DNA of 64,000 nt from assembly GCA_958009085.1 (NCBI GenBank), contig OY253670.1:620001-684000 (forward strand), written 5' to 3'. The position numbers and the translations under genes are program-made. Positions 273 through 64,000 of this stretch are shown here, one piece after another. Under the pieces are notes generated by a model, which saw only the letters and a list, made by a program, of their open reading frames with translations, was not told where the DNA came from and did not search any database. Source of the stretch: Protoeuglena noctilucae. Lineage: Eukaryota. How positions within the stretch are numbered: position 1 is the stretch's first letter; every line of letters starts with the position of its first letter.

Positions 273-3200
273 ATGGGCAGAGATTTGGGTGATTTCCTGC
301 TCGTGGCCCTCCCTGCGCACCCCGCCCGGCCCGCCCCGCCCCCGCAGGACTCCGCGTTGCCCGCCGAGTGGGCCATGGCAATCCCCAGCGTTCTGGCCTT
401 CGCCCCACTCATCCTCGCGGCCGTCCCCGGCCCGGCCACGGGTGCCCTCGCCACGGGCGCCACATGGCACGTCGACTCTGGCGGCTACCCTCGGCTGCAC
501 GTCCTCGAATTCCTTATCGCCATCGTGCCCTCCGCCGTGCTCATGAAGTCTGCCTCGCTGGCGTACCGCCTCCACGTCTCCATCCCCGACCTCCTCGGCA
601 CGTGCAAGTGCCGGCTCGCGAGGCGAGTCATCTACCTCACGACGGCCGCCGTCGCCTCCCTCATTTTCGCCCTCATCCTCTGCTACGAGGCCATCCGCCT
701 CTCTCGCGCCCTGAGCGCCTCGACCGTCCAGGACATGCTCACCGCCCTCGAGGTCGCCTATCAAGCAGACCGCAGCGCAATGGTGTCCTTGGACGGTAGC
801 GGCGCCCGGTCCGCCCTCGACGCGCTCAGCGCGTACGTCAAGTCGCAGACCGACGTCTGCGTGCGGGCCGTCCGCCTGGGCTCGGCGCCCGTGGCCGTCA
901 GCTGCGGGGGGACCCGCCCCGGCCCCGCATGGGACGTGGTGGTGCAGGAGACCCTGCCCTCGGGCGACGTGTTCGCCGTCACGCTGGACCACACAGGCGA
1001 GTCGCGCCGGCTCGCAGCGACGCCGGGATTTCGCGGGCACGTCGCATGACGCATCCGGGTCCCCACCCGCTGCCTACCGTGAGCGGCATGCGTCTTACAT
1101 GAGAGTTCCTCCCGTCCGCAGACTGGCGCCGGGATCTGCTCCTGAAGCGCACCCCGATCGCCGCCGGCGTCCAGGTGGCCGTGCTTCTCGTGGGCGCGGC
1201 TCTGATCCTGGCACCCATGGCCGCCTTCGGGGTCGTGCGCCCCCTCGAGTCGCTTTTCCGACAGGTCCTCGAGTGCGCGAGGTACTTGGACCACAACGGC
1301 CTCCTGCCCCCGCCGGGGCCCCTACCCCGGCAGCTGCACCGCGGGAGGTCGTCGACCGACCAGCGCCACCGGGAGGGCCGCCTGCCTGGGGTTGTGCGTG
1401 GGGCGTCATCCAAGGGCCTTGCCGGGCTTTCTTCTCCCACCGAAGGCCTCTTCCACGCCCCGCAAGATGGGCGCCTCCCGCGCGACTCGTCGGGCGGCAG
1501 GGGCTGCGTGGAGGGCGAGGAGCTGACGATCGAAGAAGCCATGTCACGCGTGGCGCACATGACGCAGCGCCTCATCCAGGCGCACGTCCTCGACTCCAAC
1601 GCCCTCGTGCACCGTCTCATGAACCAGATCTACGGGCACGACCCCCTGGCGTGCAGGTGCCGGGTCCTCCAGGCTGCCAATCGCTGCTCTTTCTGCAGCT
1701 CTGTCGCCATCGGAGCGACTCCTCACACCTTCAAGCCCCGCCCCCGCAGTTCGGTGGTCAACAACATCATCCAGCTGTACATCAGCCCCGCCCGAGGGAA
1801 CAAGGAGTCGTCGTACATCGCCGTCTCCTCGAGATCACGCGCCAAGGTGATGGCCGCAAAAAGGCTTCCTCTGAGCCACGTTCAATCCTTTACTGGATGG
1901 CGCGGCTGCGTGTACCATGCTGCCAGCATGAAGTCGGCGCTGCATGTGTAAGAAGACCAGGAAGCTTGCGTGGCGAGGGGCAATGTCTCTGCAAAGCTCA
2001 AAAGGGCTACGATCGTGCCAGAAGCGTGCGCAACGCTGCGCCACCCGCGGACTGTGCGTGCGTGCTTTCAACCCCCGCAGAAGGATGGTCGGAGCGACGG
2101 CGGCAGTGCGGTGCCCCCTTGGCGGGAGCTGCCGCCGAGCGGGGACGCGAGGGCAGAGCAGTTGGTGGACATGGTCGGGATGGGCACCATGGACTGGGAC
2201 GCGCTGCAAGGTGAGAGGGCCGCTTTGGTTGAGACGGGTAACTCTGTTTTGATGGACCGATGCTACGAATGGTCACTCTCACTCTCTTGGCCACCCATGA
2301 TGCCATTGTGTCGGTCCCACTTCCCCTCCCATTGCCCCCTCCCACTGCCCCTCCCGTCACTGGCCCCTCCCACTGCCCCACCCTCAGCGCCCTTCCCACT
2401 GCCCCTCCTCCCATTCCCCCCTCCCACTGCCCCTCCTCCCATTCCCCCCTCCCGCCGCCCCTCCCCGCAGTGCCCCCCGAGTCGCTGCCAGACTACGTCC
2501 TGGCCATGTGCTCGAGCCTGGGCCTGACGCGGGAGAGCTTCTACGACGGCGTGGTCGTCGAGTCGTTCGTCTCCGAGATCCTCTTCCGATACCGCGACCA
2601 CCCGTACCACAACAAGTACCACGGCCTTGACGTAGCGCACACCATGTTCGCCATGCTGCGGCACAGCCCGGAGCTCGGCGACCTCCCCAAGCTGGACAAG
2701 TTCATGCTGATCATGGCGGCCGTCGCGCACGACGTGAACCACATGGGTGTGAGCAACCAGTTCCTCATCGACTCGAGGGACCATTTGGCTGTCGTGTACA
2801 TTGACATCGCACCCCAGGAGGCCATGCACGCCAGCGTCATGTTCCAGGTCACGCAGGAGATCCCCGGCTGCAACATCTTCGCGCGCATGAGCCCCTCGAC
2901 GGTGAGGGGCCACTTCTGAGGGTCGCTGCCCCGGCTCTGCGTCGCCTTGCTGGCCTTTCGCTCTTGGCCATGTCTCGACACCGCCACCCACCTCTTTCCC
3001 GACGCCACCCGCCCCCCGCGCCTCCCCCGCAGTTCCGCTGGGCGCGCAAGATGGCCGTCTCGGTCATCCTCCACACCGACATGGCGCAGCACTTTGCCCT
3101 GAGCTCCCAGCTCGAGATCCTCCTGACCAAGGCCCAGGGTCACCCCGACGAGGGCCCCAGCTCCTGGATTGACGAGAAGGAGCGCCTGACGCTCTACGGC

Positions 3201-9923: not shown

Positions 9924-12878
9924 ATGCAGGCCAGCATGGCCTGGAGGGCGCAGTTGCAGGCTCGAAGCACGCGGCGAGGCATTGGCGGAGACGGAATACG
10001 GGGGGCGTGCCAAGAATTGCACCGAGGCGTGAAGCCTAGGCCGCCGATGTGCTCGAGTCGGCGGCGTCCTGTTCATGACAGGGAGCAGAGGCCATGGAAA
10101 GGGCCAGCTGGGTCGCCAGCTGGCCCTCGGCATCGCCCTCACAGCCGGACTAGGTGACGGGAGCGCTCTCGGATGCAGGGGCACGAGAGCGCCCTGAATG
10201 CGACGATCAGCTTGGCCGGTGGATGCTTCTCTCTCTAAAAAATCCGCCGCGCAACGCTGCGCCAGCCCCCTCTCGGCCACAGGAGTCTCGGCAGCGGCGG
10301 CGACGGCGGGGTTCATATGGTTCCAGCAGTCCCAGCAGCCGGTGATTCTCGCCCTGGCAGCCTTCGGTATGCTCTCCGAAGAAGCAATCCGTTACATCGA
10401 AGTTTCCCTGAACAACCCGCGCGCCCGCAGTGTCCCGTAACCCTTGAGGAGCTGGCGTCGTATTTCGATGCTGAGGGGAGGATCCGGCGCTTTGATCAGC
10501 TTCTGGGCCGCGTCGCCGCTCATGGAATCGATGCTTCGTGCAGGGAGGTGCTCTGGCCTTTTCTGCTGGGCGTCTACGAGCCGCACCACACTCGAGCGGA
10601 GCGGGAGAGCATCATGGACGACCTCCGGTGCGTCTCCCGGCTGCGTCGTCGCGCCCCGCTCACTTGTTCACCGCCTTTCGGTGCCACGCTAGCCATTCGT
10701 GCCCCGCGAGCGTGACGAGCATCGCCCGGCGCGCGCAGGGAGCATTTCCGAGCACTCATGGTGCAAGCTCAGGCAACGGCGGCGGAGGCGGCACGGCTCG
10801 CGGATGCGGGGGACGAGGAAACGTCTCTGGAAGTGGCACAGTTCGAGGAGGCACAGGGCATCATCGTCTTGGACTCGCTACGGCAAGGGGCGGACCCGGC
10901 TGTTGGACAGCCGCGCGTGGCATGGCACAGCCGCAGGCTCTCATGCGCCGGCCCCGCTCGCTAGGCGCAGGCAGTACATGGGCGACTACAGGGGCGCGCA
11001 CACGGACCAAGTGCAGCTGGCGAGCACCCCCAGCGGGTCGGGGAACTTCGTGGCCGGCTTGTGCAGTGCGATTGGGCTGCCTGTGGCTCCGGAGTCGGCC
11101 CTGACTCCGCCCGGGCTGCAGCAGCCGGGGAGCCGGAGCCTGGACGCAGGCGAGGGATCATCAGGCGAGTCGGGACGGGACAGGCCTCTGCATTTCACGA
11201 GGCAAGTGCCCGAGAAGGCGCTGTGGCTTGCCACGGCAGACAGGCCGGTCGCTGCCGTGCTTCCAGGGAAGGAGCAAAGACCTGTCGCGGACGAGGACTC
11301 GTGGCTGAGCGCTGCGGCGCGGGAGGCGATCGACGGGGCAGAGCACCTCACTCCCATGGGGCGTGACGTGACGCGCCGTCTGGTGCGCCTCCTGACGGCG
11401 TACGCACTCAAGGACCCCGTCATCGGCTACTGCCAGGGCATGGCGGACCTCGCCCTCATCTTCGTGCTCCACTGCGTCGATGACGCCCTGGCATTCGAGC
11501 TGTTCCGGCGACTCATGGCCGTGGCACGGGACGGCTTCCGCATCGACGAGCACGGCTACATGAAGACGCTCCTGGCCATCTCAGGTGCGGCGCGATGCGG
11601 GCGCAGTCGCGCATAGCAACGTCAGGTGGCTCCTGGGGCCGTGGGTGTGCCCCTGGCCTTCACTGCGCCTGTCTTGTGCGATGTCACCACGCCCGCCCGG
11701 CCCGCAGGGTCACTGGAGGTGACGGACCCCGTTTTGTACCACAAGCTGTGTCAGGTCGGCTCGCGCGACTGCATGTTCGCCTTCCGACTGGCCATTCTCC
11801 TCCTGAGGCGTGAGCTCCCCACCCCGGATGTGGCGTCCCTTTGGGAGGTGGTCTGGGCCGAGGACCTGGCGGCGGCGCGGCGCGACAAGCGCGAGGTGCC
11901 GGGGGCGGCAGGGGCCGCGGCGGCGGCGGGGCCGGCGGCCGAGGCGACCCCCCGCAACGGGCGTGCGCAGTCGCCGCAGCTGGCCCACGCAACCTCCCGG
12001 GTTGCCGAGCTCACCTCGCGCGCCAGCCTGAGCAGCGCCATCCGGTCCGCGGCGGCGTCGGCGCGGCAGAGCATCGAGTTCAACCCGCGCACCCCCGCCA
12101 CGCTCCTGCGGCGCTCCCACCGCCCGGCACCGTGGGAGGCGGGAGAGTTTGCGTCGCAGCTCAGCGGCACGGCCGGGAGCGACTCGGTGGTCCGGCGGCT
12201 GGCGGGGGTGCCGCCCCGAGCGCCGACCGCGGGGGGGCGACAGGGGGCGGCGGGGGGGTACGGGTCCCCGACACCGCCCGAGCCTGGGGCGGCGGCCGGG
12301 GGCAGCCCGCCCCTGCGCCGCAGCCGGCCACCGAGCGTGGCGTCTTCGGTGGGCGGCTCGGACGTTCCCCGAGGGGTCGGGGAGGACGCGGGCGTGTCTC
12401 GGTCTCGGCCTGTGGAGCCTGCGGGGCCCGCGGGCGGGGCGGGCGGGGGCACTGCTGCCGCGGAGCGTGACCGTGAGGGCTTCGGCGGCGGAGAGGCACA
12501 GCCGTCTCACCGCTCCCAGATTTCCGCGGAAGGGCACGAGGATTGGGAGCTGGAGGCGGAACGGTACCTGATGTCGGGCAGCCTGATGCTGTTTGCGCTG
12601 GTGGCGGTGGTCCGCCAGAACCGGCGCAAGATCCTGGACGAGTGCCGCAGCGCCGACGACGTCAACCAGCTCTTTGCGACTTCGGGCGCCATCCGGCCAA
12701 CGGTGTGGCAAGTGGTGTCACAGGTGCGGGGAGGGCGCGGGTGGCCGAGGTGTGCCCTAGCAGATGGCACGCACCTGCCCCTGACGGGCTTCCTTCGCGC
12801 CCTTGCTCTCAGGCCAAGCAGCTGCGACAGCGATTCCTTCAGGAGACCCGGGCCTGGGATCGCCGGGAAACGAGCTAA
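9924..12878 (+). CDS. TBC-domain Rab GTPase-activating protein (GYP7/TBC1D15-like); start at 9924-10317 uncertain
   Basis: GIDASCREVLWPFLLG, R-finger IVLDSLR (across GC-AG intron 10883-10970), Q-finger YCQGMADL, LLLRREL...LWEVVW. Confidence 0.9.
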
Positions 12879-14622: not shown

Positions 14623-15619
14623 ATGTTTCGTGCGCGGAGCACGCGAAACACATCTTTGCGTAAGAGACCCGCAGAAGAAGAGGAGGAGGCAGAGGACGCA
14701 TCCCCTGGCCCCAGCCAGGGACAGGAGGGGGCGGAGGAAGAGGCGGAGGATGGGTGAGCGTTGCTTGGTGCCCTCAGCGGTTTCTGAGAGAGTCAAGAAG
14801 ACGTTGGGAGGCGCCAGGAGGGCAACGCCGCTCCAACGAGCTCGACGTCGTGGCTTCCTGCGCAGGTCCCTGGCCGAGAGGATTGCCTTGGCCCGAGCCG
14901 CGCAGCGAGTGCGTGCCAGGAAGGCGGGGTTGAATGCCGAGGAGATGTTACATAAGCAGGAGGCGGGGGGGGGATCCAAGGAGGAGGACGCGCCCGCGGA
15001 AGACCCCGGGAAGCGAAAGTACGGGTTGCAGCACCGAGACAAGAAGTCCAAGGCGGACGACGTGTATCAAGACCGGATGCATGAATATATCGAACAAGAG
15101 GTGGCGAAGCTGCGGGTGAGTCCTCGCACGGGGTCCCGGGGCCCCTTGGCCGCGCTCGGGCGCTCGGCAGAGGCGGTCAACGAACGCATGCCTGCCTGCG
15201 CGCTTGCCAGGGCGAGGAGCCCAGGCCCGATCCAGAGGTGGAGAAGGAAAGAGAGATGGCGGAGCTCATGCAGATCCCAGAGCACTTGAAGGGCCAGCAG
15301 ACGGCCCTGCCCACCATCCCCGGGCAGTGGACCAGTGCCATGCAGGAGGTCGCGATATCCAAGGAGGACCGCATCAAGGCGAGCTCGGGCGGGTAGTTCC
15401 CTGTGCCGACACCCCGGACCCGGGGCTCGCATCACATGGTGCCTCGCGCCTGTGCAGGTGATTGAGCGGACCGAGGCAGCCAAGAAGGACCTGCTGGGCC
15501 GGGCGAAGCTCCTTGGGGTGCCCGACGATGACGTGCGGAGAGAGGAGCTTCGGGTCAGCAGGAGGGCGTTGCCACTGGAGTTTGGCAAGAAAGCGCGGCG
15601 GGGACGGGGCCAGGGTTGA
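14623..15619 (+). CDS. C9orf78: C9orf78/Hep_59 (Tls1/CSU2-like) splicing-associated factor
   Basis: MHEYIEQEVAKLR...LMQIPEHLK...WTSAMQEVAISKEDRIK|VIERTEAAK pattern; GC-AG intron 15379-15457. Confidence 0.8.
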
Positions 15620-32900: not shown

Positions 32901-33286
32901 TGTACACGTTGCGCCACTTGTGTTGCGGGTACGCCAGCCGCATGCGGATGACCGAAAAGATGACTTGCATCTGCTCGGGATCGTACGTCAGGCCCGCGAG
33001 CTCCTGCAGAGCAAGCCACGGTCATGCTCGGCGTCAACCATAACAGCCTGTGGAATCGTCTTCTGAGAGGCGCGGGAGGCGCGGTGCTTACTTGAAGTAA
33101 CGCGCCGTGCGTCCCCCACTTCGTATCGCGGGTCGCTTCCCGGGCCTTGCGCTCCGTCAGCGCGAAAGGGGCCAGTCGCTTGTTCTTCAGGGCCGTGCCG
33201 TAGTCCCGGACCCACACCACTGCCCCCAGAGCCGCGTCCTTGGCCCAGTCCGCGCCATGCAGCGTACCGTTGTTCTCCTGCATCAT
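29989..33286 (-). CDS. ENTH (epsin) domain + ArfGAP zinc-finger fusion protein
   Basis: ENTH: KAREAT...WG...[19 protein letters not shown]...GRDEGINVR. ArfGAP: CADC...[36 protein letters not shown]. Joined by a phase-1 intron starting at 32585. Confidence 0.9.
30600..30740 (-). repeat. Coding tandem repeat, four GWQPQ(Q) units of about 36 nt
   Basis: [43 protein letters not shown]. Confidence 0.85.
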
Positions 33287-43076: not shown

Positions 43077-43539
43077 GGTTACCCCTCCTTCCTAACCCTA
43101 CTCCCAAGAGGTGTCGACGGCGTGAAGAGAGGTCACCCTTGAGACGAGGAACGGGAGCGGGAGCGCGGGAGCAGGGCTGGCGAGGCTGCACAGTGTCGTT
43201 CGAGACCGCGGATGACTATTTTGCGCGGAATTAGACGCCCGCGAATGCCAGTAGGGGGAGAAGGTCGCGCCAGCGAGCCGGCTGGCCGCTGTCAGTCTTG
43301 ATGCCAGTGGGCCGCCTGTTCTCCGAGGCTGGAGCGGATGCGATCTCCTCCTGAATCGCGGTGGACGATGCACTTCCCCCGCGACGCATCTGCAGGGTCG
43401 CGGCCGCGTAACCCCACCCCCACAGCGACCTGGCCCCGTTTCGTCCTGCGTGGCAGCCATCGCCCCGCTTGCGGGGCTCTGCTGACGACGCCACTGAGTC
43501 TGTGAGCTGGGTGTCGCGAAGGCGTGATCGTTGGAGGAA

Positions 43540-48184: not shown

Positions 48185-48440
48185 TTGGGTCAACTCAGAT
48201 TTTTGTCAACAGAACAGTTGGACTCCTCTTCAGCATTTGCATGGGGCGATTTGCTCAGCCCCGCATTCAAGCGGTGTTTGATGGCTTGTATTACAGCGAG
48301 AGTAGCTGCATCAACACGCATGACCTCCAATGGCATGCCTGGGGAAGCCGAACGATGATCACGGGACGCCCACATGCGTGGCTCCCTGTGCCCACTTTGA
48401 GCCTACTTGGTGCCCAAGTAAGGTAAAAACGGGTCTGCTG

Positions 48441-51019
48441 CTAATCCAACATGAAGAACCTCTCCGGCTGGCGGATGGAGACCAGCGAGACGAGCTTCTT
48501 AAGCACGGCGCCGGGGTCGGCCGGTGGCTGGGGCGCCGCTGCACCCTCGGCGGACCCGGACGCCCCACGCGCTTGGAGTGCGGGCAGGGCCTCAGCCCGC
48601 TGAGGACCAGACATGGCCTTGGCGAGCGCCCCAGCGATGCCGACCTTCCACTGGAGCTTGGTCTTCTCTGCTGAGGCCGCCCGTATCTCCGCTTCCAACT
48701 CGTCGCGCCCGGCGCTGCCCGCCTCCTCCGCCCCCGAGCTCCTCGCATCCCCGTGGGAGGCGTCTCGGTCTCCGGCAGGATCCTGCGGTCGCCAGTAGCG
48801 TCAGCGGGGTAGTTGCGGAATCGGCAGCACCACATGTGAGGCGAGAGCTATGCTAAAGTGCGCATCCAAAAGCGCCCTGCGCTGTCACGCGCCTTCATGT
48901 CCTGGAGCGCCTGGCGAAGAGCCTCGACGCGGCCTCTCTGCGTCGCGAGCTGCGCGGCGAACGCCTCGCGCTGGTCTGAAGCACGCTGGGCCATCGCTTC
49001 ACGGAGCGACAGGGCCACACGACTGTCCACTGCGCGCAGCCGGGCGCGGCGCTCCTCGTTCTCCCGGGCCAGCTGCTCCGCCCGGGCGCGCCGTCGCGCT
49101 TCGATCTCCTTCGCCAGTCGCGCTCCGAAGTCCTAGGCACAGGATGGAACCTCGGGCGCGTCAATGTTGAGTCCGTGGGCACCATAGCCGCAACCCCAGG
49201 CTTCCATGGCCCCACCCGCGAATCGCTCCCGCAGCCGCGTGAGCCATACAGGCGGACGCACCTCGAGCGACTCGGGAAGCTTGGCGTCCGTTTCACTCTT
49301 GGTGTTCAGCAGGTTGCGCCGGAACTCTTTGTACTCCTCCATGCGCCTGCGCCTCTGTGCCTCCCGCACCTCTTGGCTCTTGTCCGCCTGAGGAGGGGAC
49401 ACTTGGCGAACCGTGGCGAATCGTGGGAGCGAATGCGCAGGCGCACACGGGCTGACCTCCATCCGTGCCACACCTGGAGCTGCCAGAGCGACTGAGTCTC
49501 ATGGGACAGGTGCGCCTCCTCCTTTGGCCTAGTGCCCTTGATTCGCCGCCGCATGCCCGCGTTCTCCACGGCGAGCGCGTGGGCCCGCTCCTCCACGTCC
49601 GCCCGTATCGCAGCCGCCTTGCGCCGCCGGGCCTCTTCCACGTCTTCTGGGAGGCCCTGGGACACGAGGCCGAGCAAGCTGTCTTTGACTGACATGCCAC
49701 ACACCCGTGCAACGGTCACACTCCTGCCAGGGTGGAGCGGAAGCGCTTCCGTGCACCTCAGATGGCCTACTCCCGCACGCTCGCCTTGGACTCGAGGCCA
49801 CTGAGACTGGACAGCTTGCGCCGGAAGACCCGGGCCTCGGAAGCGCGCTGCTCCTGCTCGGACTGGCGCCGCTGGCTGACCTCGGCGCGCCTCTCCGACC
49901 GCACCCTCGCGATGTCCTCAGATATCTGAGTGTCGCTGCGGGATTGGACCTCGGACAGGCGCCTCTGCGGGGGACAGCTACGGCGCGGGATGAGCACGCA
50001 CGTGTTTGGTCACTCCCAGGACACGTGGTCCACCCCATCACTCCACCCATCACATCCACTCCACACCTGCAGGTTCTGCCAGGACTCGTCGGCCTGTCGC
50101 ATCGCGGCCTCCCGCTCCGCGCGCGCCTGCCGCTGTCGCCGCTCCCAGGCCTCCTCGAGCTCGGGCGACAGGCGCTTCTCCTCGCGTCCCGACGACACCT
50201 CGGCGATGCGCTGGCGGTACTCGCGCACGGAGGCGCGGTGCTCCTCGAGGCGCGCCTGCCTCACCTCCTGCGGCCCAGCACGAAGGAGAGGAAGTCAGGC
50301 TAGGTCGTAGACCTAGCCGTGAGATGGCATCCGGACGACAGCGTCCCGCGCACCTCGCGCTGAGCTGCCAGCTGCCGCCGCGCTTCCTCCAGCTCGGGAT
50401 CGAGGTGTTTGTTGCTTGGCCTCTGTCGGATGCTGCTGATGTTCCGAAACAGGCTCGTCATTTGCGCCTGACGCTCCTGCACGTGCATCCCAAAGGATCC
50501 TTGGCTGCATCTTCCTCCGCGGCACATCGACATCCGATTCGACTAGCTCATCAAATGATTCAGCTTTAGGTCTGCCAAGAACCCACAACCCACACCCACC
50601 CGCTCCTCCTCCTCCCTCGCAGCCTCGCGCTCCTGGCGGAGGTTGGCCCGCGCTCGCAACACATTCGACGGCAGGCTTGTGGTGGCCTTTGGTTGCACAT
50701 TCTGGAGCTTTTGACGAAACCGAATCGACTCCTGTCTGCGCATCGTCTGCTGCTTCTCCATCTTGGCGCGCTTCCGTGCGAGCTCATCTGCCTTAGCCCT
50801 ATGCTCAGCCCCGGCCCGCCTGAGCATGTGACGATAGCTCGCGAGCTGCGGTCGAAGCAGGAATCGTCTCGCACTTTAGGCCTTCGGCCGCCCTCTGAAA
50901 TGTCCTTAGATGTGCACCAGTGACCACCAAAACCACCGCCCTTTCCCCCGCCCTCGCACCTCATCCACCTCGTCCTCCGGCAAGCCGCCGACATTGGGAG
51001 CAGCGACGATGACAGACAT
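48441..51019 (-). CDS. Orphan charged helical protein with 48-49-aa tandem repeats
   Basis: About ten phase-consistent exons; the spliced product shows a regular period (see findings). Confidence 0.8.
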
Positions 51020-51310
51020 GGTCTCCCGCGGCCGCCGGGGTGCCGGCGAGCTGCGCGGAGCTGGACCACCAGGCCCGGCGTGGGCGGGAACGGACACCAC
51101 CGCTATCTGAAATCATGCAAGAGTGAAATTGCCATCGCCGCGGGCGAGGACATCGCGTCTGCTGGATTTTTTCTTGCCAGTCTTGCGGAACGCAAGTAGT
51201 TGAACTTCACCACTCAATGGACAAAGAGATATCATACTGACGACATCCAGGTGCGCACCTGTCCTTACCTGTGCCTCGCTAGGGCGTCGCACGTTGGGGA
51301 GCGGCGGGGA

Positions 51311-52410
51311 ATGGCCGCTGCGGCTTGTTGCTCGTGCTCGAGCACGAGATCGCTCGGTTCATCGGGGCGGAGGCCAGGTGCGGCTTGTTTGCCCAGCTGG
51401 GGCCCCCATCTAGAGCAGCAGCTCAGGCTGCATGCACCGCGACGCCGCGATGACCGATCTGTTACACAACCCGCGCGCAGTGTGGTGCCGGGATGTGAGT
51501 CAGCGGGGCCCGGGGGCGCTGGCGGGGCGCGGACGGGCGGTCGCGATGGCCACCGCCAGGACGGGCCCGATCGTCGTGGTGGACAACTACGACTCGTTCA
51601 CCTACAACCTCGTGCAGGTGAGCGTGGCCTTTGGGTGTCCGACGCGACCGCTGCCTGCTCTCCGCGGCCATCGGCTGCACCAGCGCGACCGGCGAGGCCG
51701 CAGTACCTGGGGGACCTTGGCTGCGAGCTCGCGGTGTTCAAGAACGACGAGAAGAGCGTGGCGGAGATAATTGCGATGGAACCCAAGGGAATCATGGTAT
51801 CTCCTGGGCCCGGGAGGCCTGAGGACTCGGGAATCTCGTTGGAAATCATCGAGAAGGCGGGCCCGCTGGGCGTGCCCATCTTTGGCGTGTGCATGGGGCA
51901 CCAGGTGCGTGCGGCGCGGCCTCGAAACACGGAACGGGTGCGGTGTGATCATCGCGACTTTTTGCAAAGCCCGTCGTCCCACCGCAGTGCATCGGGCAGG
52001 TGTTCAAAGGGCGCGTGATCCGTGCGCCAAGCGGGGTGATGCACGGCAAGACCTCGCTCGTGTACCACAATAACGATGGTCTGCTGAAGGGTCTGCCGAA
52101 CCCCTTCCACGCGTGCCGCTACCACTCCCTCGTCATCGACCGGGACAGCTTCCCTGAGGTGCGGGCCTGAGGGGCGCTGCTGGCCCCGCCCGCACCGCCG
52201 GCGTCACGCCTCCGCGTAGCAACTGAGGCGACCCGTCGCGCTCTCGCCTCTCAGGACGAGCTGGAGGTGACGGCCTGGACGGAGGACAAGACGATCATGG
52301 GCGTGCGGCACCGGAAGCACACGGGCATTCAGGGGGTGCAGTTCCACCCCGAGTCCGTCATTACGGAATCCGGCGAGCTCATCGTCAAGAACTTTGTCGA
52401 CTCGCTGTGA
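51311..52410 (+). CDS. trpG: Anthranilate synthase beta subunit (class I glutamine amidotransferase), plastid-targeted
   Basis: [44 protein letters not shown]. Confidence 0.95.
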
Positions 52411-52460
52411 CAATGCCTGCCGTTTCAAGCGACGCGCCCCCCGCCTTCTCGGGACGTGCT

Positions 52461-53693
52461 CTAGCGGTAGTATGCCATGTGCTTGGACCCCAAGCCATAC
52501 GGCGCGGACAACGCCGGCACGTGCTCCTCCTCCTCGTCGAACCCCACGTCGTCCTCCTTGAGCCACGCCTCGATCGTCTCGAACATGCGAGCCTTGCCTT
52601 GCAAGACTTGCTCGGGCAGAACCTGCAGCGAGGTCGCGGCCCAGACGTCGTCGCTTTAAACCCCACCAAAGTAAGGTGGCCTCCCTAAGGCGCCGGCGGC
52701 GAGCGTCACCTCCTGCGCAGGCCCCGCCCGCTTCAGCTTCCCGTGCGCTGCGTAGGCGACGTGCGTAATCCACCGCTCCAGGCCGTCAAAGATGTGCGTC
52801 GCGTACACAATGGTGGCGCCCCTCTCCTCGCACTCGGAAACGAAGAAGTCGAGGAGGTCCATGCGGCCCACCACGTCCACGTCGACGGTAATCTCGTCGA
52901 GCAAGAGGACGCGGTAGGGCCGCAGCAGCCCCAAGCAGATCTGGACTCGGCGGCGCTGACCCTCCGAGACGCGGTTCATCCGCCACTCCAGGTCGATGTC
53001 GAGCATCTCGACCAGCCGGCGGCAACGTACTGGGTCGACGCCCGCAACGCCCGCAATCATCTGCCCCGCCGAGATGTCCGCCTGCAACGCGACATTGCTC
53101 CCCGCCACGGACGCGTCCCGCCTCCAGGCTGCGATGGTGACGCGCTTATGTGTCGGCACGCGACCCCAGCAGCGCCTGGCCCACCAAACATGCACCCGCG
53201 CACCTGCTCCCAAGTAGCTCAGCTCCCCGGTCGTCGTCAGCTCCAGGTCGTGGAAGGGTGGCCTCCCCAGCACTCTGCAGGCAGGGCGTGAGCAGCGAAA
53301 TCAGACGGGAATTGGCATAAGCGTTGGCCGCGCGCGTGGAGGACTCAGCACGCGGACCTGATGACGTCCTCCCCCACCAAGTGCTTCCCGGCCAGCAGCT
53401 GCAGCAGAGTGGTCTTGCCGGCTCCATTAGCTCCCAGCAAGAGGCATCGAGACCCCGCGGGGAGGCTCAGGGAGAAGTCGACGATGCAATTCTTCGCGCA
53501 ACCTGGGACAACGTGGGCCAAGCATTCTGCAGAACGCCCGCGTGGGGCCGGAGCGTCACAAGTCCCTGGCCAATCGCATACATGCATCTATTTCAAGCAA
53601 GCTGACGGCACCTGGATACGAGAACTGCAGCCCCCGGACGCGGAGGGCGTCTTCCGGTGCACCCGCCGGCTGTTGCACCTCCGCGAGAGCCAT
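52461..53693 (-). CDS. Soluble ABC ATPase, ABCI19/20/21 / CAF16-like
   Basis: [38 protein letters not shown]-terminal SKHMAYYR*. Confidence 0.93.
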
Positions 53694-54144
53694 GCCGGCG
53701 ATGCGTGTTTCTGGATGATCTGAATTATACGACAGCTTGCGCTTGCTGGTAGCGGCACGATTCAGAGGCAGGGGGGGAGGGGGGCGGGGACGGCACTGGA
53801 ACTATCGAACTATTGGTCGCGTTTCTAAGGGCAGCGGGAGGAAGCGCTGCTGTGGTAACAGTCAGGACTGGCTTACTCGTTATTGGGCAATCGCGGTGAA
53901 AGGACAAAGGGCAGCCAAACTTTCCTGACACAGTTCGTGCTATGAGCCTGGTCCGGGTCCGGCACCCGAGTCACGTTTCGGGACGACGGCCGTATTGCGC
54001 GCCGGTTTGCCAAAGCCCGAGAGGAGGCGCGTCAGAGGCCCCCCCGGCGGGGTCGTCCGTGGCTGCGAGGCGGGGCAGGGGGATCACGACGTCACGTGCG
54101 TCACGTTCTGCGAGAGTCATGCAGAGTCGTCCAACGGCCTCCGC

Positions 54145-57100
54145 CTAGCTCACCGCGGTCTCTGTTGGCGTCGCAGCGCCGCCGGTGTCGCCGCCGCCAC
54201 CCTGGCTCGGCAGCGGGGCCGTACCCTCCATGCCCAGCTCAGACGCCCGGCGGTTGAGTCGCTGCTCCAGGTCACTCAGCTTGGACACCTTTTTCTTCAG
54301 GTCAGAAAGCATGGAGAGGAACTCGGTGTGCTCGACGCCATGGGCTGACCCCGTCGATGCCCGGGAGGCTGCTCCGTCGATGGCCGCCACAAACTCTTTG
54401 ATGATCGCAGGCACGGCAGCTTCCATTTTCTGAGCCAAGAAGATGAAGTGGCGCTTCGGGTGCAACGCATGGGATCCGCGAGCCGCTCTCAGCGCTCCAG
54501 CAACAGCTTTTAGCATCCCAGCAGCCGCCGCCGGTGCTCCACCAGCAGCTCCCAGCCCCCTCTGCGTCCCCACCTGAATCTGCTCGAGCATGGTGTGTCC
54601 CCACTCCGGACCGACGTCCGCCTCGACGTGCGCTTCCCTGTCCATGCTGCGGCTCATCGTCACGAGGCGAGCCAGGACGCTCCTCCTGTCCTGGGCCGTA
54701 GGCGTCGTGCGTGGCTTGCTCAAGTCCATGCTCGCCTGTTGCAGCACGTTGCCAGACTCGGGGTCCAAGTCACTGCAAGGCACGGACGCAGAGGACGAAT
54801 TCAAGCACGAAAGAGCCACCTGGGTGGTACGCTCACCGCCGCTGCGGCGCAGTCACCCGAGCACTTGCAGCCGCGCGTCGGCGATGCGGAGCATGTAGAC
54901 CTTGGACGCCGGGAACAGCACCGTCATGTCGTTGAAATCCTCCTTGCTCAGCTTGAAGAGCTCGCAGGGCTCGATTGCATCCACATCCGCCACCCGCAGC
55001 GTCTCCTGGGGCGCACCGTCCACAGCATCGCTCACGCCTCGCCAGGCCACGAGCCACGGCGCGACTGGTCACATCGAGCGCTGCCTCGCCTTGAGGATCG
55101 CGATCTCGCCGAAGTAAGACCCGGGGCCGAGCACCGTCACAGGCATGCCCTTGATCGAGACCTGCACGTGGCCCGAGTCGATAAAGTACATGCAGTCGCC
55201 GATCTCGCCACGAGACATGATGCGGTCTGACGGGAGGAACACCTCAGGCTCCAACTGCGGGGACGGGAGGCGGCAGAAAGTGACCGTCTCGGTCAATGGT
55301 AGGGGGCCTGGCTGGGGCCGTGGCTGGGGGCCTGGCTAGGGCAAAACACGGCGCTCCACGCGCCTTGGTGACGATCGCGTTGATGAAGCCGCGGTCCGCG
55401 TTCTGGAAGAAGGGCACCGTGCCGACGACCGACTGGGCGTTGTGCCGCGCGACCTCGATCCTGCGGGCGCCACGGCGGCTCAGTTCTTTGCACGAGTTGA
55501 CGCGACGTGCCGTGAGACATCCCGCAGCACAATATCATGCCCCGCAGCACGATATGCTTTTCTCCTCACCTGAGCGACGTCGTCATCATGTCCAGAACCT
55601 CGTGCTCTTTCATGAACTTGCCCGACGCCCAGCGGAACTCGTGGTTCTCGCGGATGCGCGCCCGGAGGTCGAGAGGCAGGTTGCGCATGAGCATGTACTG
55701 GTTCAGCACGGCGACTTGCCTCCTGCGGGGGGGCCGACACGCGCGTGTTGCAGACACAGCGGACGAGGGGCTTCGCACCTGCACAGATGGCCCTGGCAGG
55801 TGCTGATGGGTCCGCACCTGTACTCCGAGTCAAGAGAGTCCATCTGAACGAGGAGCGTGGTGATGACGCCGGCCAGCGTGACGAAGAGCCCGGACCCCAT
55901 GAGGATGGAAACGGACGTGACCCATGTCTCCGCGGTGCGTAAAGGGCCCGTGCCCGGAGAGCCGTAGCCGATGCACATCATGTTGGAGACGGTCTTGAAG
56001 AAGGCGTACGAGTACTGGACGAAGGCGGGCCTGCCGATGATGCCCGCGACCTCGGGCCAGCAGTTGTGAGGGAAGTTCTGCGCTGCAGCCACCAGGAACT
56101 GAATGCAGCAGTTCCAGTGGCAGTAGATGAGGATGATGCTCTGCGGGAGAGGTGGAAAGCACCCCTTGGCGTACTCACTCGTGTCGCATTTACTACAGCC
56201 CAACGGACCCAGTCGTCCAACACGGCGACGTCGAGGCTGCACCCCAACGCGCCAGCTGTGCCCACGCACCACGAGCTTGAGCATTCGTGAAACGAAGTTA
56301 GAGAAGTTGGAGAAGAAGTCGAACTTGCTGAGGTAGCGGCTCCACTTGGAGACCCGCAGGAGCCTGCAAGGGCGACGTGCTATACAACACTTGACACGTC
56401 GCTCGAGGTAGCCAGGGCCGCAGTGGCCGCACACGGTGCGCATGCTAGCGGCGCACTGGTCAGCCCAGTAGTTGACATCACCGAGCTGCGGCGCGGCTGG
56501 CGCCGGGCTCGCCTGAGCAGCTTGGAGAGGCGGATGATTCGGAGAACCTTGGGGAGGCGCTGCACCTGGCCCCGGGAGTTGGCCGAGCTGGAGAGGAGGA
56601 TGAGGTCGAGCGGGACAGAGGAGATGAGGTCGCTGAAGAACCAGCCCTTGAGGTAGTTCACCGCGATGCGCTTCCGGTCCACCACCAGGACCTGGTCGAG
56701 CGACTGCAGGTACCCCGTGTTGAAGTTGGCGACGATGTCGGCGATGAAGAAAAAGTCGATGATGATGTCGATGACGGTCCAGGCCAGCTCCTGGCTCCGC
56801 CCCAGGGTGTTCGCGGCACCCTGGCTCCAGAAAAAGGCGAGGCGGACAGGAAGCACGATCATGGTCCACAGCACGAGCGCCAGGATGGTGAGGTCCCACC
56901 ACTTGCGGAAGGACGAGAGCGGGTGGATGACGATGTCGTACCAACGCTCGATGGGCTTGTCGAGGTTTGGATCCCGCTCGTCCACTGTCATGAACTTGTA
57001 CTTGTTGGCGTAAATGGCCGGCATCCCAAACACCCTGCGGACCACGTCACGTCAGTGCAAAGGTCGCACGGAGGCCGGGGTCGCTCTCTCTCGACCCCGT

Positions 57101-58242
57101 CAATGCCGCCGCGTGGGTGGGTGCCGCGCCCAGGCGCCCATCGTATGTCCACCTGCTTACCGGACGAAAAAGAGCTTCATGCTCTCCCCGGGCGCAGACG
57201 CATCCGAATTTCGAAAGGATCCCTGCCGGGCACTCGAGCCCGCCACCGCCTTGCTCGTCGGCTCCGCTGGGCCAGACCAGGAGCCACCTGCACCTGCGGG
57301 AGCGCGCGCAGACCGCTTGCGGAACCGAGAGCGCTCGAGAGCGCAAGATGTGCCAATGACCCGCCGGCATGGCATCACCTGCGGCCGCGTCGTGTGGCGA
57401 GACCCCGATCTCGCCCAGCGCGAGGTCGTGCTTGGACATCGAGGAAGACATGGACATGATCCGCTGAGAGTTGCTCTCTGCGCCATGACCCGACGTCTTG
57501 AACATCATGTTTTGCTTGGAGATGGAGGACAAGGTCATCAGGCGTCGCGAGGGCGGCTGCGCCATGGGGACCTGCATGGCACCGTGATTCGGATTTACGT
57601 GGTTCATCTCTCGTGAACATGTCGTATCGACAGAAGAAAGTCCAAGCCATGCGTCCGATGGGCGCAACGCAGGTGTCAAAGCTGCGCACCTTGGTTTCGC
57701 TGCGCGGGCTGCCGGGAGCGTCCTCCTCGGCAGGCCGCTTCCAGCTTGACTGCCGTACCTGCGAAAAAAGGGTGCCATGGCGTCACTGCTTGCGCCCCAC
57801 AGTGCAGGCAACGCCCCGAATGTGAACTGCTGTTAACTACCCAGAGCATCCCCTTCCGGAGGAAGGGAAGGGCCATGCAAAGTGCCCCGATATCGCCCTT
57901 ATGCCTCACCACCGTGCGGAACTCGCGGTCGAGCTCCTTGGCCCGCTTTTTGCCTGTCATATCCCGCTCCCGGTCCACATAGGACCCCCGCGGCGACGTC
58001 TGGCGCCGCATATTGAAAGAGGAGTTGCCCGTGTCGCTAAACTTGTTTGCGCTGGGCGAGTTGGGAACTCCGTGCACGCTCCCGCCCGCGGCCGCCCCGT
58101 CCCCGCCATGGACAGATGTGTCGGCCCGCCGGCGCGAGGTGGCCCGTTCAACGCGCGTATCATCAGCGCTGGTATTCCATCCAGGGGTGCCGCGAACCGA
58201 GCCGCCGTCGGCTGCCCCCACCCGATCCCCGGGGGCGCTCAT
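54145..58242 (-). CDS. HCN-like cyclic-nucleotide-gated voltage-sensor channel, copy 1
   Basis: IHPLSSFRKWWDL, S4 RLPKVLRIIRLSKLLRLLRVSKWSR, HWNCCIQFLV, pore NMMCIGYG, C-linker, CNBD GSYFGEIA...R; last exon end uncertain. Confidence 0.92.
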
Positions 58243-58464
58243 CGCCCTTGCACACTAGGCAGGGTGCGTTGGGCACAAGAAGACCGCGTTCAAACCTAAC
58301 GCGTGCTTCACCGGACTTCGCTCTCGACTATCACGTGTTTGTATCAGCAAGCTCCGGTCACTCCACGCAAAGCAGCGCGCAGGCTGAGTAGTCCGAAACG
58401 GCAAGACAGGGGGAGAAGAGGGGGGAGGGCACAGCCAGCCGAAGGTGTTTCTAGTTCCTACAGG

Positions 58465-61461
58465 CTACCGCATGTCCTTGGACCCAAATCGGTAGTGCAA
58501 AAACGACTTCCCCTGCAGATTGCTCTGCGGAAGCGGGGGCCCTCCAGACATCGTCAATATGCGGCGCTTCATGCTTGCCAGCGTCGTGAGGAACGCGTCC
58601 TGGGGCGAGTGCTGGGAATGGCTGCCGGTGCCCAGGGAGGACGAACCATCCGCGGAGCTTCGCGCAAACTCCCTGCACAGCGCCGGCACAACCTTCTCCA
58701 GCTTCTGCGATGCAAGGGGGAAGGCAGGGACGTTGCTGCAGCCCAGAGGGTCGCTCGTGCGGGCGGCCATAAGGCAGCACCCTCTCACCTCAATCTCCCG
58801 CAGCGCAACGTTGCCCTTGTCAATGCTGGCTCGAGCCAGGTCCTCGTCTTCCTTGACCGTGCTCAAAACCTCCTTCTTGCTGGGTTCGCTTGGTTTCCAT
58901 GACATCCCTCGCCCTTTCAGCGGATCCGCTTCCCTGCGGGCACCACACGACACCCCCGACCCTCATCTCCACCTCTGATAACTGCCATAACGACACCTGG
59001 CATTGCATCGCCACCCCTGCCCCGGGCCCACCTCAGCACCGCCAGACGTGCGTCGGCAACACGGTCCATGTACGCCCTGCTCCCCGGGAACATCCGCATC
59101 ATGTCCTCGAAGTCCGCCCTCCCCAGCTTGAACAGCTCGCACGGCTCCAGCGCATCGATGTCCGCCGCCCGCGGTGCGCTCTGCACACACAGCCACGACG
59201 CCGCCCTCAGGACCGCCCTCTCTACCCCCCTGCCGCTCGCGTCGCCCCGGCCCCGACACCCCGGCCCCGCCCCCGCACGCGCCCCACCTTCAGCAGCGCG
59301 ATCTCCCCAAAGTACGACCCCGTCCCTAGCACGCTCACGGGCCGCCCCCGAATCGACACCTGCACCAGCCCCATCTTGATAAAGTACATGTCCTCCCCCA
59401 GGTCCCCCATCTTGATGATCCGGTCCCCCGGCAGGTACACCTCCGGCTCCAGCTGCACCACAAGCCGAGCCGGGCACATGTGTCGGCCGTCGCAAGCCCT
59501 TGCTTCTCCACCCCCCAGCCGCCGCGCCACTCTGCACGACCCTGCCCCGCTCACCTTCGTCACGATGGCGTTTACGAACCCCGGGTCCGCGTTCTGGAAA
59601 AACGGCACGCTCCCCACAATGTCCCGCGCGTTGTGCAGCGCCACCTCGTTCCTGTGGGCGCCAGCTGCCACACGCCATGTGTCACGTCTGCCGTCCGCGA
59701 CTGATCGCGACTGGGCCGTCAGCCCGCACCCTGGCTCCGTCTCTACGCCCCCAGCGACACCAGCTGCGCCGCCCTTGCCCAGCCCGCCTCGCTCGCCTCA
59801 GCGCCGTGGGCAGCATGTCCATCACGTCCTGCTCTTTCATGAACTTGCCGGCCGCCCACTTGAACTCGTAGTTCTCGCGGATGCGCGCCCGCAGGCTCAA
59901 AGGCAGGTTGCGCATCAGCATGTAGTTGTTCAGGATCCCCACTTGGCTCCTGCAGGGAGCCTGACATGTGAATCTATGTCCCACACAGCACACGAAGCAC
60001 ACCCCTCGTGCACCGGCGCCCCCGCACGCCGCTGCCGGGTCCGCACCTGTACTCCTTGTCAAGCCCGTCCATGTCGACCACGAGAGACACGGTGAGACCG
60101 ACGATGATGATCCAGCAGAAGGTGTTGATGCAGAAAGCCACGTTGAGGTTCCAGGCCTCGGCGAACGTGAAGACGGCGTCGCCCGGGGACCCGTAGCCAC
60201 ACGAGATGGCTTGGGAGAGGGAGCGGTAGAGCGACCATGTGTACTGCGCAAAGACGCCCTCAAACAGCGCCCCGGACTTGACCGGCCAGCTCATGGCGGG
60301 GAAGTTGAGGATGGAGGGCACCAGGAACTGGATGCAACCGTTCCAATGATTGACGACCAAGAAGATGACCTGCGGTGAGGCATGGGTAGTATGCACGTCC
60401 ATAAGCACCATTGCTCGTCACAAAGCATGCCCAGGAGGGGCCCTGACACGCACCAGGTTGCGGATGATCTTGGGGACGAACCCCTGCATAACGAAGTGGA
60501 CGTCGTACTTTGGCAAGTAGCGGGCCACCTTGGTCGCACGTAACAGCCTGCGTGCAGCGTACTCGTCGGTCCGTGCATTCCTCTCTGGCAACATCTTGCG
60601 GGTTGCGAAGACAGGCCGCCTGTGGATGCAAGCGCGCATCACCTCAGCAGTCGCATGACCTTCAAAACCTTGAGGCCTTTGGAGATGCTCGATCCCCCCT
60701 CGTAGGCAGCTTCGGTACACACTAAGATGAGGTCAAGGGGGAGGCACGACACGAGGTCGACGGGGAACCATCCGGCAAGGTAGTTGCGGACGATCCGCCG
60801 GCGCGTCGTGACGAGCACTTGGTCTGGCTCCTCAAAGGAGGCGGTGTTGAAGTTGAGGAGGAGTTCGGTGATGAAGACGAAGTCGAGGGCGATGTTGAGG
60901 CACGAGAAGCCTGCGTTGGTGGCCGTGAGGAGGCCCTGGTGCCAGAAGAAGGCCTCGCGGACGGGGTCGACGACGACGGCCCACGTGGCCAAGGCGATGA
61001 TCACCAGGTCCCACCACTTGCGGAAGGACGAGAGTGGGTGGATGACGACGTCCCACCATCGCCAGCCGGGATCCTCGAGCGACGAGTCGCCGCCCACCGT
61101 CATGAACTTGTACTTGTCGGCGTACATGGCTGGCACGCCAAACACCCTGCGGACGAGCGACGGTTGCGTGTGAGGATGCAAGTCGGAAAGATGAGGGCGG
61201 GCAATACTGCTGTTTAAAGGCGCGCGTCAGACTCCAGGCCCATGTGCCCGCCCTGGTCCGCGTCTCGCACCTGACCATGAACTCCTGCCACCCGTCCCCC
61301 TTCTCCGCCGCGGACCCCACCGCCGACCGCGTGGGGCGCCCCTTAGGCACGCCGTCGCTTGCGCTCGCACGCAGGCCTCGCCCGGACGGCCCCGCCTCAC
61401 CGACGTCCAGGCCCGTTAGAGCCGGGTCCACAGCGACCTGCCGGACGGACGAGCTGCGCAT
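58465..61461 (-). CDS. HCN-like channel, copy 2
   Basis: Same exon structure as copy 1 across the channel core; HWNGCIQFLVP, pore SQAISCGYG, CNBD GSYFGEIALLK. Confidence 0.92.
59062..59924. repeat. About 863-bp near-identical direct repeat of 63051-63913
   Basis: Offset 3989; by eye one mismatch (59781 A vs 63770 C); includes three introns. Confidence 0.95.
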
Positions 61462-62221
61462 CACGGCAGCGACCTGAAGTGCAAGAGCGGATGCAAAAGG
61501 TAAGAGCTCCATCCAGCGCCCAGTGCGAAGCGTGAGGCGCTCAGGTGCCCTATTCGTCGCACCTTCACTGGCGAGGGGTCCTCCGAGCTCTGATAGACAG
61601 AATTCAGGCTCGCTCTCCTAGCCTGCACAAATCAAAAGGATGTGAACTCGCGTTTTCACGACGGTGCGCCCGCGCAGGAGAGGTGCAAGTCGCAGGGCAA
61701 CCCACCATGACTTGCACGTGGCGGTCCAACGCCCGTGCGTTCCGCTTCCCCGTGGGATCGCCCCGTGTAGAGCCTGCGATGAAGCTCTTTGCTGGCGTCA
61801 CCAATGCACACCAGGAAACGTCGCGTGAGCGGGGGACCCTCTGCCCCCGCGAGATATGGCAGTCACCTCCCGCTGGGGTAGCGAAGGACGCATCGCGGCC
61901 CGCGTCCCGGTCCATGGCCACCCTGACACAATCAACCGGCTCGTGGAGCCCACGTGGAGCCCACCGGCTACGTCGCGTCCTGCGACGCCCCGTGCGTGTA
62001 GCAGACGACCATGCACATACCACGGACCCCCTGGGACCACTGCGGCCCCTTCGTGCGTAAATTTCCTAATTCAAGCGAGTCACTTAATTGGCGACGCGTA
62101 AACTGCCTTCCTCGATGCGACTGGGGTGCAAACCCTGCTGCCAGATGGACGACTAGCCTAACTGAACTGGTAGTGGGAAAGAGCATAACGGAGTGGAAAC
62201 ATGCGCACGCGACGACAGGTC

Positions 62222-64000
62222 CTAACCCTCCTTCCATGCGGATTTCTTCTGCGGGCCGGGCAACAGCACGAAATTTCGATGAGGGACGAGTGCGGCTTTG
62301 TGCGCAGTGCCGCGGCTGATCCGAGCGGCCCCACTTGCCTGCGACGACCGCCCGAAGACCTGGGAGTAGTAGGAGTTGGCGGAGGTGAGCCCCGGCATGG
62401 GCGCCACGCCGGGCTGTCCCGGCCGCCCGGACGGGATCGCAGCCAGCTCCATGACCCTCTTCTTCATGTCCGACAGCATGTTGAGGAACGCGTCCCTCTC
62501 GCGCTCGTCCATCGCGGCGCCATCGTGAACGCTACTCTCCGCCGACCCGGGCCCTGCCGCCCTCCGGAACTCCTTGCAGATGTCGGGCACCAGTTGCTCC
62601 AGATGCTGCAAGAACCGCGAAGACGCAGGCATGTCGGCAAGCGTCCGGTCGCCTGCGCACGCGGGGGCTGAGGTTTTGGACGCGGGCGCGACTCGCCTCG
62701 ATCTGTTTGAGTGCTGCGTGGCCTTCGTCGAGGCTCCAGCGCCCCACGTCCCTGCGGCCCGCCGCGACGGCGTCCAGCAACGCTGTGCCAGCCCCCGCCC
62801 GGGCCACCTCCTCGCTGGGCCCAGGTCCGTCGGAGACCTTTGGCGCTGCCTTGATCATGGCAGAGAGCAGACTGTGCTGGGACCGCTGCGAGTTGGCTCC
62901 CTTCAGCGGGTCCGCTTCCCTGCCGACAGGATACAACGTGCCTGACCTCAGCCCCGCTCCAGCTCACTGCCACACGCGACGCAACGCCAAGCCATGGCCG
63001 ATCAGGTCGCCAGTCCCCACCTCAGCACCGCCAGACGCGCGTCCGCGATGCGGTCCATGTACGCCCTGCTCCCCGGGAACATCCGCATCATGTCCTCGAA
63101 GTCCGCCCTCCCCAGCTTGAACAGCTCGCACGGCTCCAGCGCATCGATGTCCGCCGCCCGCGGTGCGCTCTGCACACACAGCCACGACGCCGCCCTCAGG
63201 ACCGCCCTCTCTACCCCCCTGCCGCTCGCGTCGCCCCGGCCCCGACACCCCGGCCCCGCCCCCGCACGCGCCCCACCTTCAGCAGCGCGATCTCCCCAAA
63301 GTACGACCCCGTCCCTAGCACGCTCACGGGCCGCCCCCGAATCGACACCTGCACCAGCCCCATCTTGATAAAGTACATGTCCTCCCCCAGGTCCCCCATC
63401 TTGATGATCCGGTCCCCCGGCAGGTACACCTCCGGCTCCAGCTGCACCACAAGCCGAGCCGGGCACATGTGTCGGCCGTCGCAAGCCCTTGCTTCTCCAC
63501 CCCCCAGCCGCCGCGCCACTCTGCACGACCCTGCCCCGCTCACCTTCGTCACGATGGCGTTTACGAACCCCGGGTCCGCGTTCTGGAAAAACGGCACGCT
63601 CCCCACAATGTCCCGCGCGTTGTGCAGCGCCACCTCGTTCCTGTGGGCGCCAGCTGCCACACGCCATGTGTCACGTCTGCCGTCCGCGACTGATCGCGAC
63701 TGGGCCGTCAGCCCGCACCCTGGCTCCGTCTCTACGCCCCCAGCGACACCAGCTGCGCCGCCCTTGCCCCGCCCGCCTCGCTCGCCTCAGCGCCGTGGGC
63801 AGCATGTCCATCACGTCCTGCTCTTTCATGAACTTGCCGGCCGCCCACTTGAACTCGTAGTTCTCGCGGATGCGCGCCCGCAGGCTCAAAGGCAGGTTGC
63901 GCATCAGCATGTACTTGTTGAGCACCGCCAACTGTCTCCTGCAAGGCACGCCACCGTTTGGGAATGCCTCTTCCTCTGCCCAAAGCGATACCATGCGCCA
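62222..64000 (-). CDS. HCN-like channel, copy 3 (3' part only; C-linker, CNBD and tail; runs off the window)
   Basis: YMLMRNLPLSLRARIRENYEF..., CNBD nearly identical to copy 2, distinct tail READPLKGANSQ. Confidence 0.88.
63051..63913. repeat. Second copy of the 863-bp repeat
   Basis: Matches 59062-59924. Confidence 0.95.

Follow-up and report, generated by a model that had tools for sequence, protein, structure and literature searches.

A stretch of 64,000 nucleotides from the genome of Protoeuglena noctilucae (contig OY253670.1, positions 620,001 to 684,000 of the forward strand; hereafter the window) was analysed for introns that start with GC instead of GT and end with AG (GC-AG introns), of which a preliminary description made from the sequence alone had listed 17. 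GC donors were present in the DNA and spliced exactly there, and their excess in the window was confirmed to be real and beyond chance, at about ten times the usual rate. The G+C content of the window was 0.64–0.71 (host approximately 68%). In the window's genes, third codon positions were 87% GC (GC3 0.87) and introns 68% GC. Genes with short introns (approximately six per gene) were packed densely on both strands. Based on spliced RNA contigs and exon-wise Pfam matches, they included genes for a cyclic-nucleotide phosphodiesterase, YL1, a RabGAP-TBC protein, ribosomal protein S23, an aldo/keto reductase, a 2-oxoacid dehydrogenase E2, the mitochondrial calcium uniporter (MCU), PCO/ADO, an ENTH and ArfGAP protein, TRAPP sybindin, eIF3i, an importin-11-like protein, GATase, an ABC ATPase and three tandem cyclic-nucleotide-gated channel paralogues.

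The named best matches of an eIF3i exon were all green algae (Nannochloris 72%, Elliptochloris 70%, and others), and the closest match overall was 85% identical. In a quick eIF3i tree the gene was placed, with weak support, in a clade within core Chlorophyta. Judged by these matches and this tree, the host is a GC-rich, intron-rich core chlorophyte. Pseudoscourfieldia marina was rejected as the host, being poor in introns and 57% GC (PMC13213038). Prasinoderma coloniale (69.8% GC, PMC7455551) did not agree either, since no near-identical named match was found and the named eIF3i matches and the tree point to core Chlorophyta, and Emiliania huxleyi was rejected because of the green-algal matches and the GC share.

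Splicing at GC donors

Read directly from the sequence, all 17 listed intervals started with GC and ended with AG at the coordinates given in the preliminary description. The introns all began with GCGAG, GCAAG or GCGCG, and AG directly preceded the donor in 16 of the 17, in agreement with the earlier statement that nearly all donors read AG followed by one of these three motifs.

Removal of the introns from RNA was analysed over positions 42001–62000 with three marine metatranscriptome runs (X1–X3) and a fourth run, X7, which has no record of its kind and was treated as DNA. Ten runs contained positions 42001–52000 wholly or partly: the sampled words of this region were present to 37–58% in four runs of a single marine metatranscriptome study, and to 100% in four runs that carry the label of one organism, X7 being one of them. 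Between 42001 and 62000, 58 RNA joints were found, and splice types were taken from the 15 of them that were listed. All 15 occurred in RNA runs only and none in the DNA run; 12 were GT-AG and three were GC-AG. The GC-AG joints (42451 to 42543, 48781 to 48892 and 49655 to 49784) were each found in all three RNA runs, and at each of them the minus-strand GC..AG was the sole canonical cut. They correspond to the minus-strand introns 42452–42542 in the eIF3 subunit I gene and 48783–48892 and 49657–49784 in a gene for a coiled-coil protein. In addition, a loose RNA end at 42098, seen in all three RNA runs, continued at 41970–41999, which identified a fourth GC-AG intron at 42001–42098 (minus strand, eIF3 subunit I gene). 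Since this fourth intron was found by looking for it, three of 15 is the unbiased figure. With these 15 of the 58 joints, the probability of three or more GC-AG joints is 4e-4 at a share of 1%, and that of three or fewer is 0.002 at a share of 60%. At these four introns the RNA was cut exactly at GC and not at a nearby GT, which is one of the outcomes that the preliminary description had named as speaking against its proposal.

RNA pieces ending at exon borders agreed with two more of the listed introns. Pieces in X1 and X3 stopped at 47233, which is the acceptor of 47143–47235 (plus strand, importin-11-like gene) given a 3-nt ambiguity, and a piece in X1 started at 56511, the donor of 56364–56512 (minus strand, channel gene 1) given a 2-nt ambiguity. 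Exact removal from RNA was thereby shown for four of the 17 introns, with contig borders agreeing for two more. Elsewhere, RNA contigs broke at 45685, 46238, 50389, 52529, 54532, 56307 and 56481, with 30-letter continuations that had no match in the window; these unmatched loose ends could come from variant strains, from paralogues at other loci or from chimeric contigs. A loose end at 56670 matched 56675–56700 at 92%, like a variant allele.

Junctions were also supported by protein profiles. Pfam was scanned with 141 single exons, and profile positions that abutted across an intron were taken as support for the junction; GT introns abutted likewise, for example in GATase (positions 83 and 84, and 139 and 140). 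In the aldo/keto reductase gene (17443–17576, plus strand), the upstream exon ended with position 40 of the Aldo_ket_red profile and the downstream exon began, with its first residue, at position 41, so that DTAE is joined to VYG. In eIF3 subunit I, the EIF3I profile abutted at positions 56 and 60 across 42452–42542 and at 170 and 173 across 42001–42098, where IRR is joined to WD. Further abutments were found for TPR_IPO11 (55 and 65) across 47143–47235 and for cNMP_binding (57 and 61) across 55006–55089 in channel gene 1 (minus strand). The exon following 23627–23727 in the MCU gene (plus strand) began, with its residue 1, at position 83 of the MCU profile, and full-length MCU homologues spanned this junction, mostly ungapped. 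A single importin-11 homologue was found (P0001; 36% identity over 1000 aa). It aligned without a gap at the junctions of the three listed plus-strand GC-AG introns of the importin-11-like gene, namely 44873–44960 (at aa 283), 46216–46413 (at aa 546; a stop at +63 if retained) and 47143–47235.

The channel genes provided evidence of a different kind. Three tandem paralogues with Ion_trans and cNMP_binding domains lie at 54145–63994 on the minus strand, with 44% identity between genes 1 and 2. Genes 1 and 2 share eight intron positions, four of which differ in having GT in one gene and GC in the other. The GC-AG introns of gene 1 at 55006–55089, 55255–55363 and 56364–56512 correspond to GT introns at 59181–59287, 59453–59554 and 60548–60642 in gene 2, and the GC-AG intron of gene 2 at 59652–59796 (minus strand) corresponds to a GT intron at 55461–55569 in gene 1. 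These shared positions place all four GC-AG introns at conserved intron sites. The intron at 55255–55363 is the one at VTK and LEP, the third of the motifs that the preliminary description had considered restored by GC splicing; its paralogue position is conserved, and the other two are backed by the Aldo_ket_red and EIF3I profiles.

The C-terminal part of channel gene 2 (59027–59954) was duplicated at 63016–63943 (928 bp, 98.5% identity). The listed intron 63641–63785 (minus strand), in the partial third channel copy, was a recent duplicate of 59652–59796, to which it was 99.3% identical. As both are copies within this duplication, the list holds 16 independent cases. The word depth of the DNA run approximately doubled over 58–60 kb. 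The third copy also contained a GC-AG intron that was absent from the list, 62606–62696 (minus strand). It sits directly after ..LKQIE, a position occupied by GT introns in channel genes 1 and 2, and was predicted by the gene model described below even when GC donors were given a prior of 1%. The list held, with the corrections that two of its introns represent one recent duplicate and that one further intron had been missed.

Three of the listed introns, all on the plus strand, rested on gene modelling. Retention of 997–1121, in the N-terminal region of the phosphodiesterase gene, would shift the frame and lead to a stop at +50; no in-frame GT alternative was present within 90 nt. Retention of 10883–10970 in the RabGAP-TBC gene would also shift the frame, and the GT alternatives were poor in consensus; this intron was lost at the 1% prior. 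In the gene with a Hep_59 domain, retention of 15379–15457 would lead to a stop at +15, and a partial Pfam match adds to the gene model, the Hep_59 match extending to the very end of the upstream exon. Altogether, support for the 17 introns was divided into four proven by RNA, ten backed by Pfam, homologues or paralogues, and these three. Fourteen introns are thus backed independently of the model; they are spread over 10 genes, on either strand and across the whole window. Two sequences, P0122 and P0123, were rejected as splicing evidence for 10883–10970 and 23627–23727: they were 100% identical to exons of the window, but were unspliced genomic open reading frames.

Frequency of GC-AG introns in an independent gene model

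Introns of the whole window were predicted with a dynamic-programming exon parser that was trained only on 16 RNA-confirmed introns and four confirmed coding regions and was not given the list. A self-trained version was dropped, as it merged genes across strands and kept only seven of the 16 RNA-confirmed introns. The recovery of 15 of the 16 training introns is circular; the independent checks were the Pfam abutments and the exon borders of RNA pieces outside the training set. Between 42001 and 62000, the parser predicted 55 introns, compared with 58 RNA joints.

The number of predicted GC introns depended on the prior given to C at position +2 of the intron, whereas the total hardly changed: 44 of 144 introns at a prior of 68%, 33 of 144 at 20%, 22 of 145 at 5%, 18 of 144 at 1% and seven of 141 at 0.01%. 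The total score was highest at 20%. All 17 listed introns were recovered at priors of 5–68% and 14 of them at 1%. Decoy donors served as the control. At priors of 20%, 5% and 1%, GG donors yielded 20, seven and three introns and GA donors 20, 12 and five. At the 1% prior, the 18 GC introns thus compare with three (GG) and five (GA), and the total score was 55–115 units higher with GC. The GC-specific excess over the decoys was approximately 13–15 introns at every prior, in agreement with the list of the preliminary description. Retention would cause a frameshift or a stop for 16 of the 17 listed introns, the exception being 47143–47235, a 93-nt open frame.

The best count for the window was 18 GC-AG introns among approximately 140 (approximately 13%, 95% confidence interval 8–20%), comprising 17 independent cases. 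RNA, homology and the decoy-controlled gene model thus bear out the earlier estimate of about 12%, far above the usual 1% or so. Its denominator, a hand estimate of 130–140 introns, is close to the 141–145 introns of our own gene finder. The warning that gene finders restricted to GT would mis-model such genes is reasonable: with GC nearly forbidden, the parser lost two of the 16 RNA-confirmed introns that were otherwise recovered and kept only seven of the 17 listed ones.

Other GC introns called by the parser were treated with caution. The 16 extra ones at the 20% prior were discounted, some being tied to artefact exons of 0–7 nt (at 14033, 17114 and 27636/27768). One call absent from the list, 45931–46014 (plus strand, 84 nt, in frame and free of stops), coincided exactly with a 26-aa gap in the alignment with P0001, and the segment is probably coding. 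Another, 11150–11266 (plus strand, 117 nt, in frame and free of stops), lies where P0122 shows an open frame. Both cases show that GC-AG introns are easily over-called in open GC-rich sequence.

Other features of the window

An intron of the phosphodiesterase gene (2211–2470, plus strand) consisted mostly of C-rich tandem repeats with a unit of approximately 19–20 nt (CCCCTCCCACTGCCCCTCC-like), as seen in the raw sequence. ENTH (N-terminal) and ArfGap domains were found in one predicted gene at 30537–33446 (minus strand), which is either one gene or two merged by the parser. The last exons of the GATase gene (plus strand) and the ABC ATPase gene (minus strand) were bridged by RNA contigs at 52253–52620, indicating that the 3' ends of these convergent genes overlap or adjoin each other. 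The importin-11 homologue P0001 and the eIF3i homologue P0022 (74% identical) came from the same source, and for both the longest contig listed has 74065 bases. The eIF3i and importin-11 genes, which lie at 41440–48184 in the window, are perhaps neighbours also in a distant green-algal relative.

Donor composition and origin of the excess

Apart from C at +2, the GC donors of the core intron set matched the consensus closely. Compared with 98 GT donors, the 21 GC donors had more A at −2 (0.90 vs 0.74), G at −1 (1.00 vs 0.95), A at +4 (0.86 vs 0.45; Fisher P = 6e-4) and G at +5 (1.00 vs 0.74; P = 0.006), and somewhat less G at +3 (0.86 vs 0.94). AG at −2 and −1 together with G at +5 was present in 19 of the 21 GC donors and in 48 of the 98 GT donors. 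Such a composition would be expected if the mismatch at +2 had to be compensated at other positions, but it is in part an effect of ascertainment. GC donors in general match the consensus better than average outside +2. No U12-type donor (RTATCCTT) was present among the GC donors of the listed and core introns. An all-versus-all comparison of the 144 predicted introns revealed no repeated families, only three pairs that stem from tandem duplication. No small nuclear RNA (snRNA) genes were found in the 64-kb window with Rfam.

In the introns, C made up 0.65 of C and T together. At a neutral +2 position, C would accordingly be expected in about 65% of donors, and the observed 13% means that T is favoured approximately 12-fold. 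Given this strong remaining preference for T, recognition of the +2 position is loosened at most and not lost.

Introns of this kind are rare in most genomes. GC-AG introns averaged 1.3% over 61 species (Iwata & Gotoh 2011, PMC3033335), and the same paper names GC-rich algae as exceptions: Aureococcus anophagefferens (39.6%), Micromonas pusilla (22.2%) and Chlorella sp. (7.7%), with an abundance whose origin was called an enigma in 2011. Pelagophytes had 14–17% according to a 2024 preprint (bioRxiv 10.1101/2024.10.30.620910). The window's pattern, which had been described as unusual, is therefore so in its rate, about ten times the typical one, but as a phenomenon of GC-rich algae it was already published (PMC3033335). 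It is neither a new kind of intron nor a new mechanism and belongs to this published class. We found no literature report on this particular lineage or on the GC-AG frequency in a marine intron-rich core chlorophyte, in a search that did not extend to the per-species supplement of PMC3033335.

With Chlorella sp., M. pusilla, Aureococcus and the pelagophytes, the host has in common a GC-rich genome (64–70%), canonical acceptors (AG) and a GC-AG share that exceeds 1.3% many times over; the first two are also green algae. In contrast to all of them, it belongs to another core-chlorophyte lineage (best named eIF3i match 72%), and its share is a window-level value. It is also far more intron-dense than Micromonas or the pelagophytes, with its approximately six introns per gene, and its GC introns do not form repeated families as the introner elements of Micromonas and Aureococcus do. 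Emiliania (Gephyrocapsa) huxleyi is likewise a GC-rich marine alga with RNA-verified GC donors and failing GT-only gene models; about 60% of its donors are GC, and gene models biased towards GT were wrong (Feldmesser et al. 2014, PMC4028052). E. huxleyi is, however, a haptophyte in which GC is the majority donor, whereas the host is a green alga in which T is preferred (three GC-AG among 15 RNA joints; P = 0.002 against 60%). The introns resemble the U2-type GC-AG introns of animals and plants in their dinucleotides, in the absence of U12 motifs and in better-than-average other donor positions (a likeness affected here by ascertainment), and differ from them in being approximately ten times as frequent. 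Chlamydomonas reinhardtii, with a genome of approximately 64% GC, is a GC-rich, intron-rich core chlorophyte like the host. In contrast to the approximately 13% found here, its expressed sequence tags contained 532 GC-AG and 25053 GT-AG introns, that is 2.1% GC-AG (PMC2846911, Table 2). GC content and lineage alone thus fail to predict the level in the window.

We consider it probable that these are ordinary U2-type GC-AG introns of a GC-rich, intron-dense core green alga, in which C at +2 is offset by a near-perfect remaining donor and which are fed by GC-biased substitution. C at +2 would weaken the pairing with U1 and U6, and it would be tolerated because the rest of the donor nearly matches AG followed by G(T/C)G(A/C)G (A−2, G−1, G+3, A+4, G+5). 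GC-biased substitution would keep producing T-to-C changes at +2, so that donor sites would flip between GT and GC over time while T is still preferred; the GT/GC swaps at paralogue positions show such flips over evolutionary time. We infer the compensation by other positions, the role of GC pressure and the use of the major spliceosome.

Several points weigh against this explanation. The RNA proof concerns four introns in two genes, from one 64-kb window and with 15 of the 58 joints listed. The strength of the GC-donor consensus is partly due to ascertainment: the intron sets were picked partly with a donor matrix, and the preliminary description and the parser both needed good flanks to accept a GC donor, which biases the logo comparison. 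Of the four RNA-proven GC donors, two have A at +4. GC content alone also falls short of explaining the level, given the 2.1% of Chlamydomonas (PMC2846911) and the 2.7% listed for Micromonas RCC299 at 64.1% GC (PMC3033335). Some lineage-specific tolerance may be needed in view of these low shares in GC-rich algae.

Such tolerance could lie in the splicing machinery itself. Changes in bases or modifications of the U1 or U6 snRNA, or in U1C, LUC7 or Prp8, could have relaxed the reading of +2; on this view GC pressure alone would be insufficient to produce the observed share. A share about six times that of Chlamydomonas at similar GC content (2.1%, PMC2846911) would fit this, as would the two Micromonas species with 22% and 2.7% at similar GC content (PMC3033335), and the authors of the latter comparison suggest base modifications or U1 snRNP proteins. 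T at +2, however, is still favoured approximately 12-fold over composition in the window (13% against 65% C), and we regard changed machinery as an unlikely cause. By analogy, a changed U1 in this alga is itself unlikely, because the GC-AG-rich Aureococcus and M. pusilla keep an unchanged consensus U1 5' end, as given in PMC3033335.

The probable explanation, compensated U2-type introns under GC pressure, also has to be set against doubts about the excess as such and against a possible role of GC donors in regulation. Were the window or the gene models over-counting GC donors, the genome-wide share could be near 1–3%. A single 64-kb window was examined, the parser had a decoy floor of 3–5 introns at the 1% prior and approximately 20 at the 20% prior, its extra GC intron at 45931–46014 is probably coding and three listed introns depend on modelling. 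A local or artefactual excess is nevertheless very improbable in the face of three GC-AG joints among the 15 listed (P = 4e-4 against 1%) and of the 14 introns backed independently of the model. GC-AG introns have been linked to alternative splicing in animals, and GC donors could accordingly be maintained because their weakness allows splicing to be regulated, or introns to be retained, in certain genes. The affected genes, however, are unrelated and of a housekeeping character (eIF3i, importin, reductase, channels), and shared intron positions carry GT in one paralogue and GC in the other, so that we give regulated retention hardly any credence.

A broader proposal can be made only tentatively: the genome-wide GC-AG share in this core-chlorophyte lineage might be 10–25%, the highest among intron-rich green algae, without introner repeats and through a lineage-specific loosening of +2 recognition that arose independently of haptophytes and pelagophytes. 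If true, the organism, with approximately six introns per gene and frequent GT/GC changes between paralogues, would lend itself well to identifying the spliceosome component that sets the tolerance of GC donors. The same two features would make it possible to test compensation cleanly against altered machinery. In a GT-only annotation of this genome, approximately one intron in eight would be wrong and about half of the multi-intron genes damaged. With the window, an intron-dense green alga joins the few GC-rich algae in which GC-AG introns are known to be abundant.

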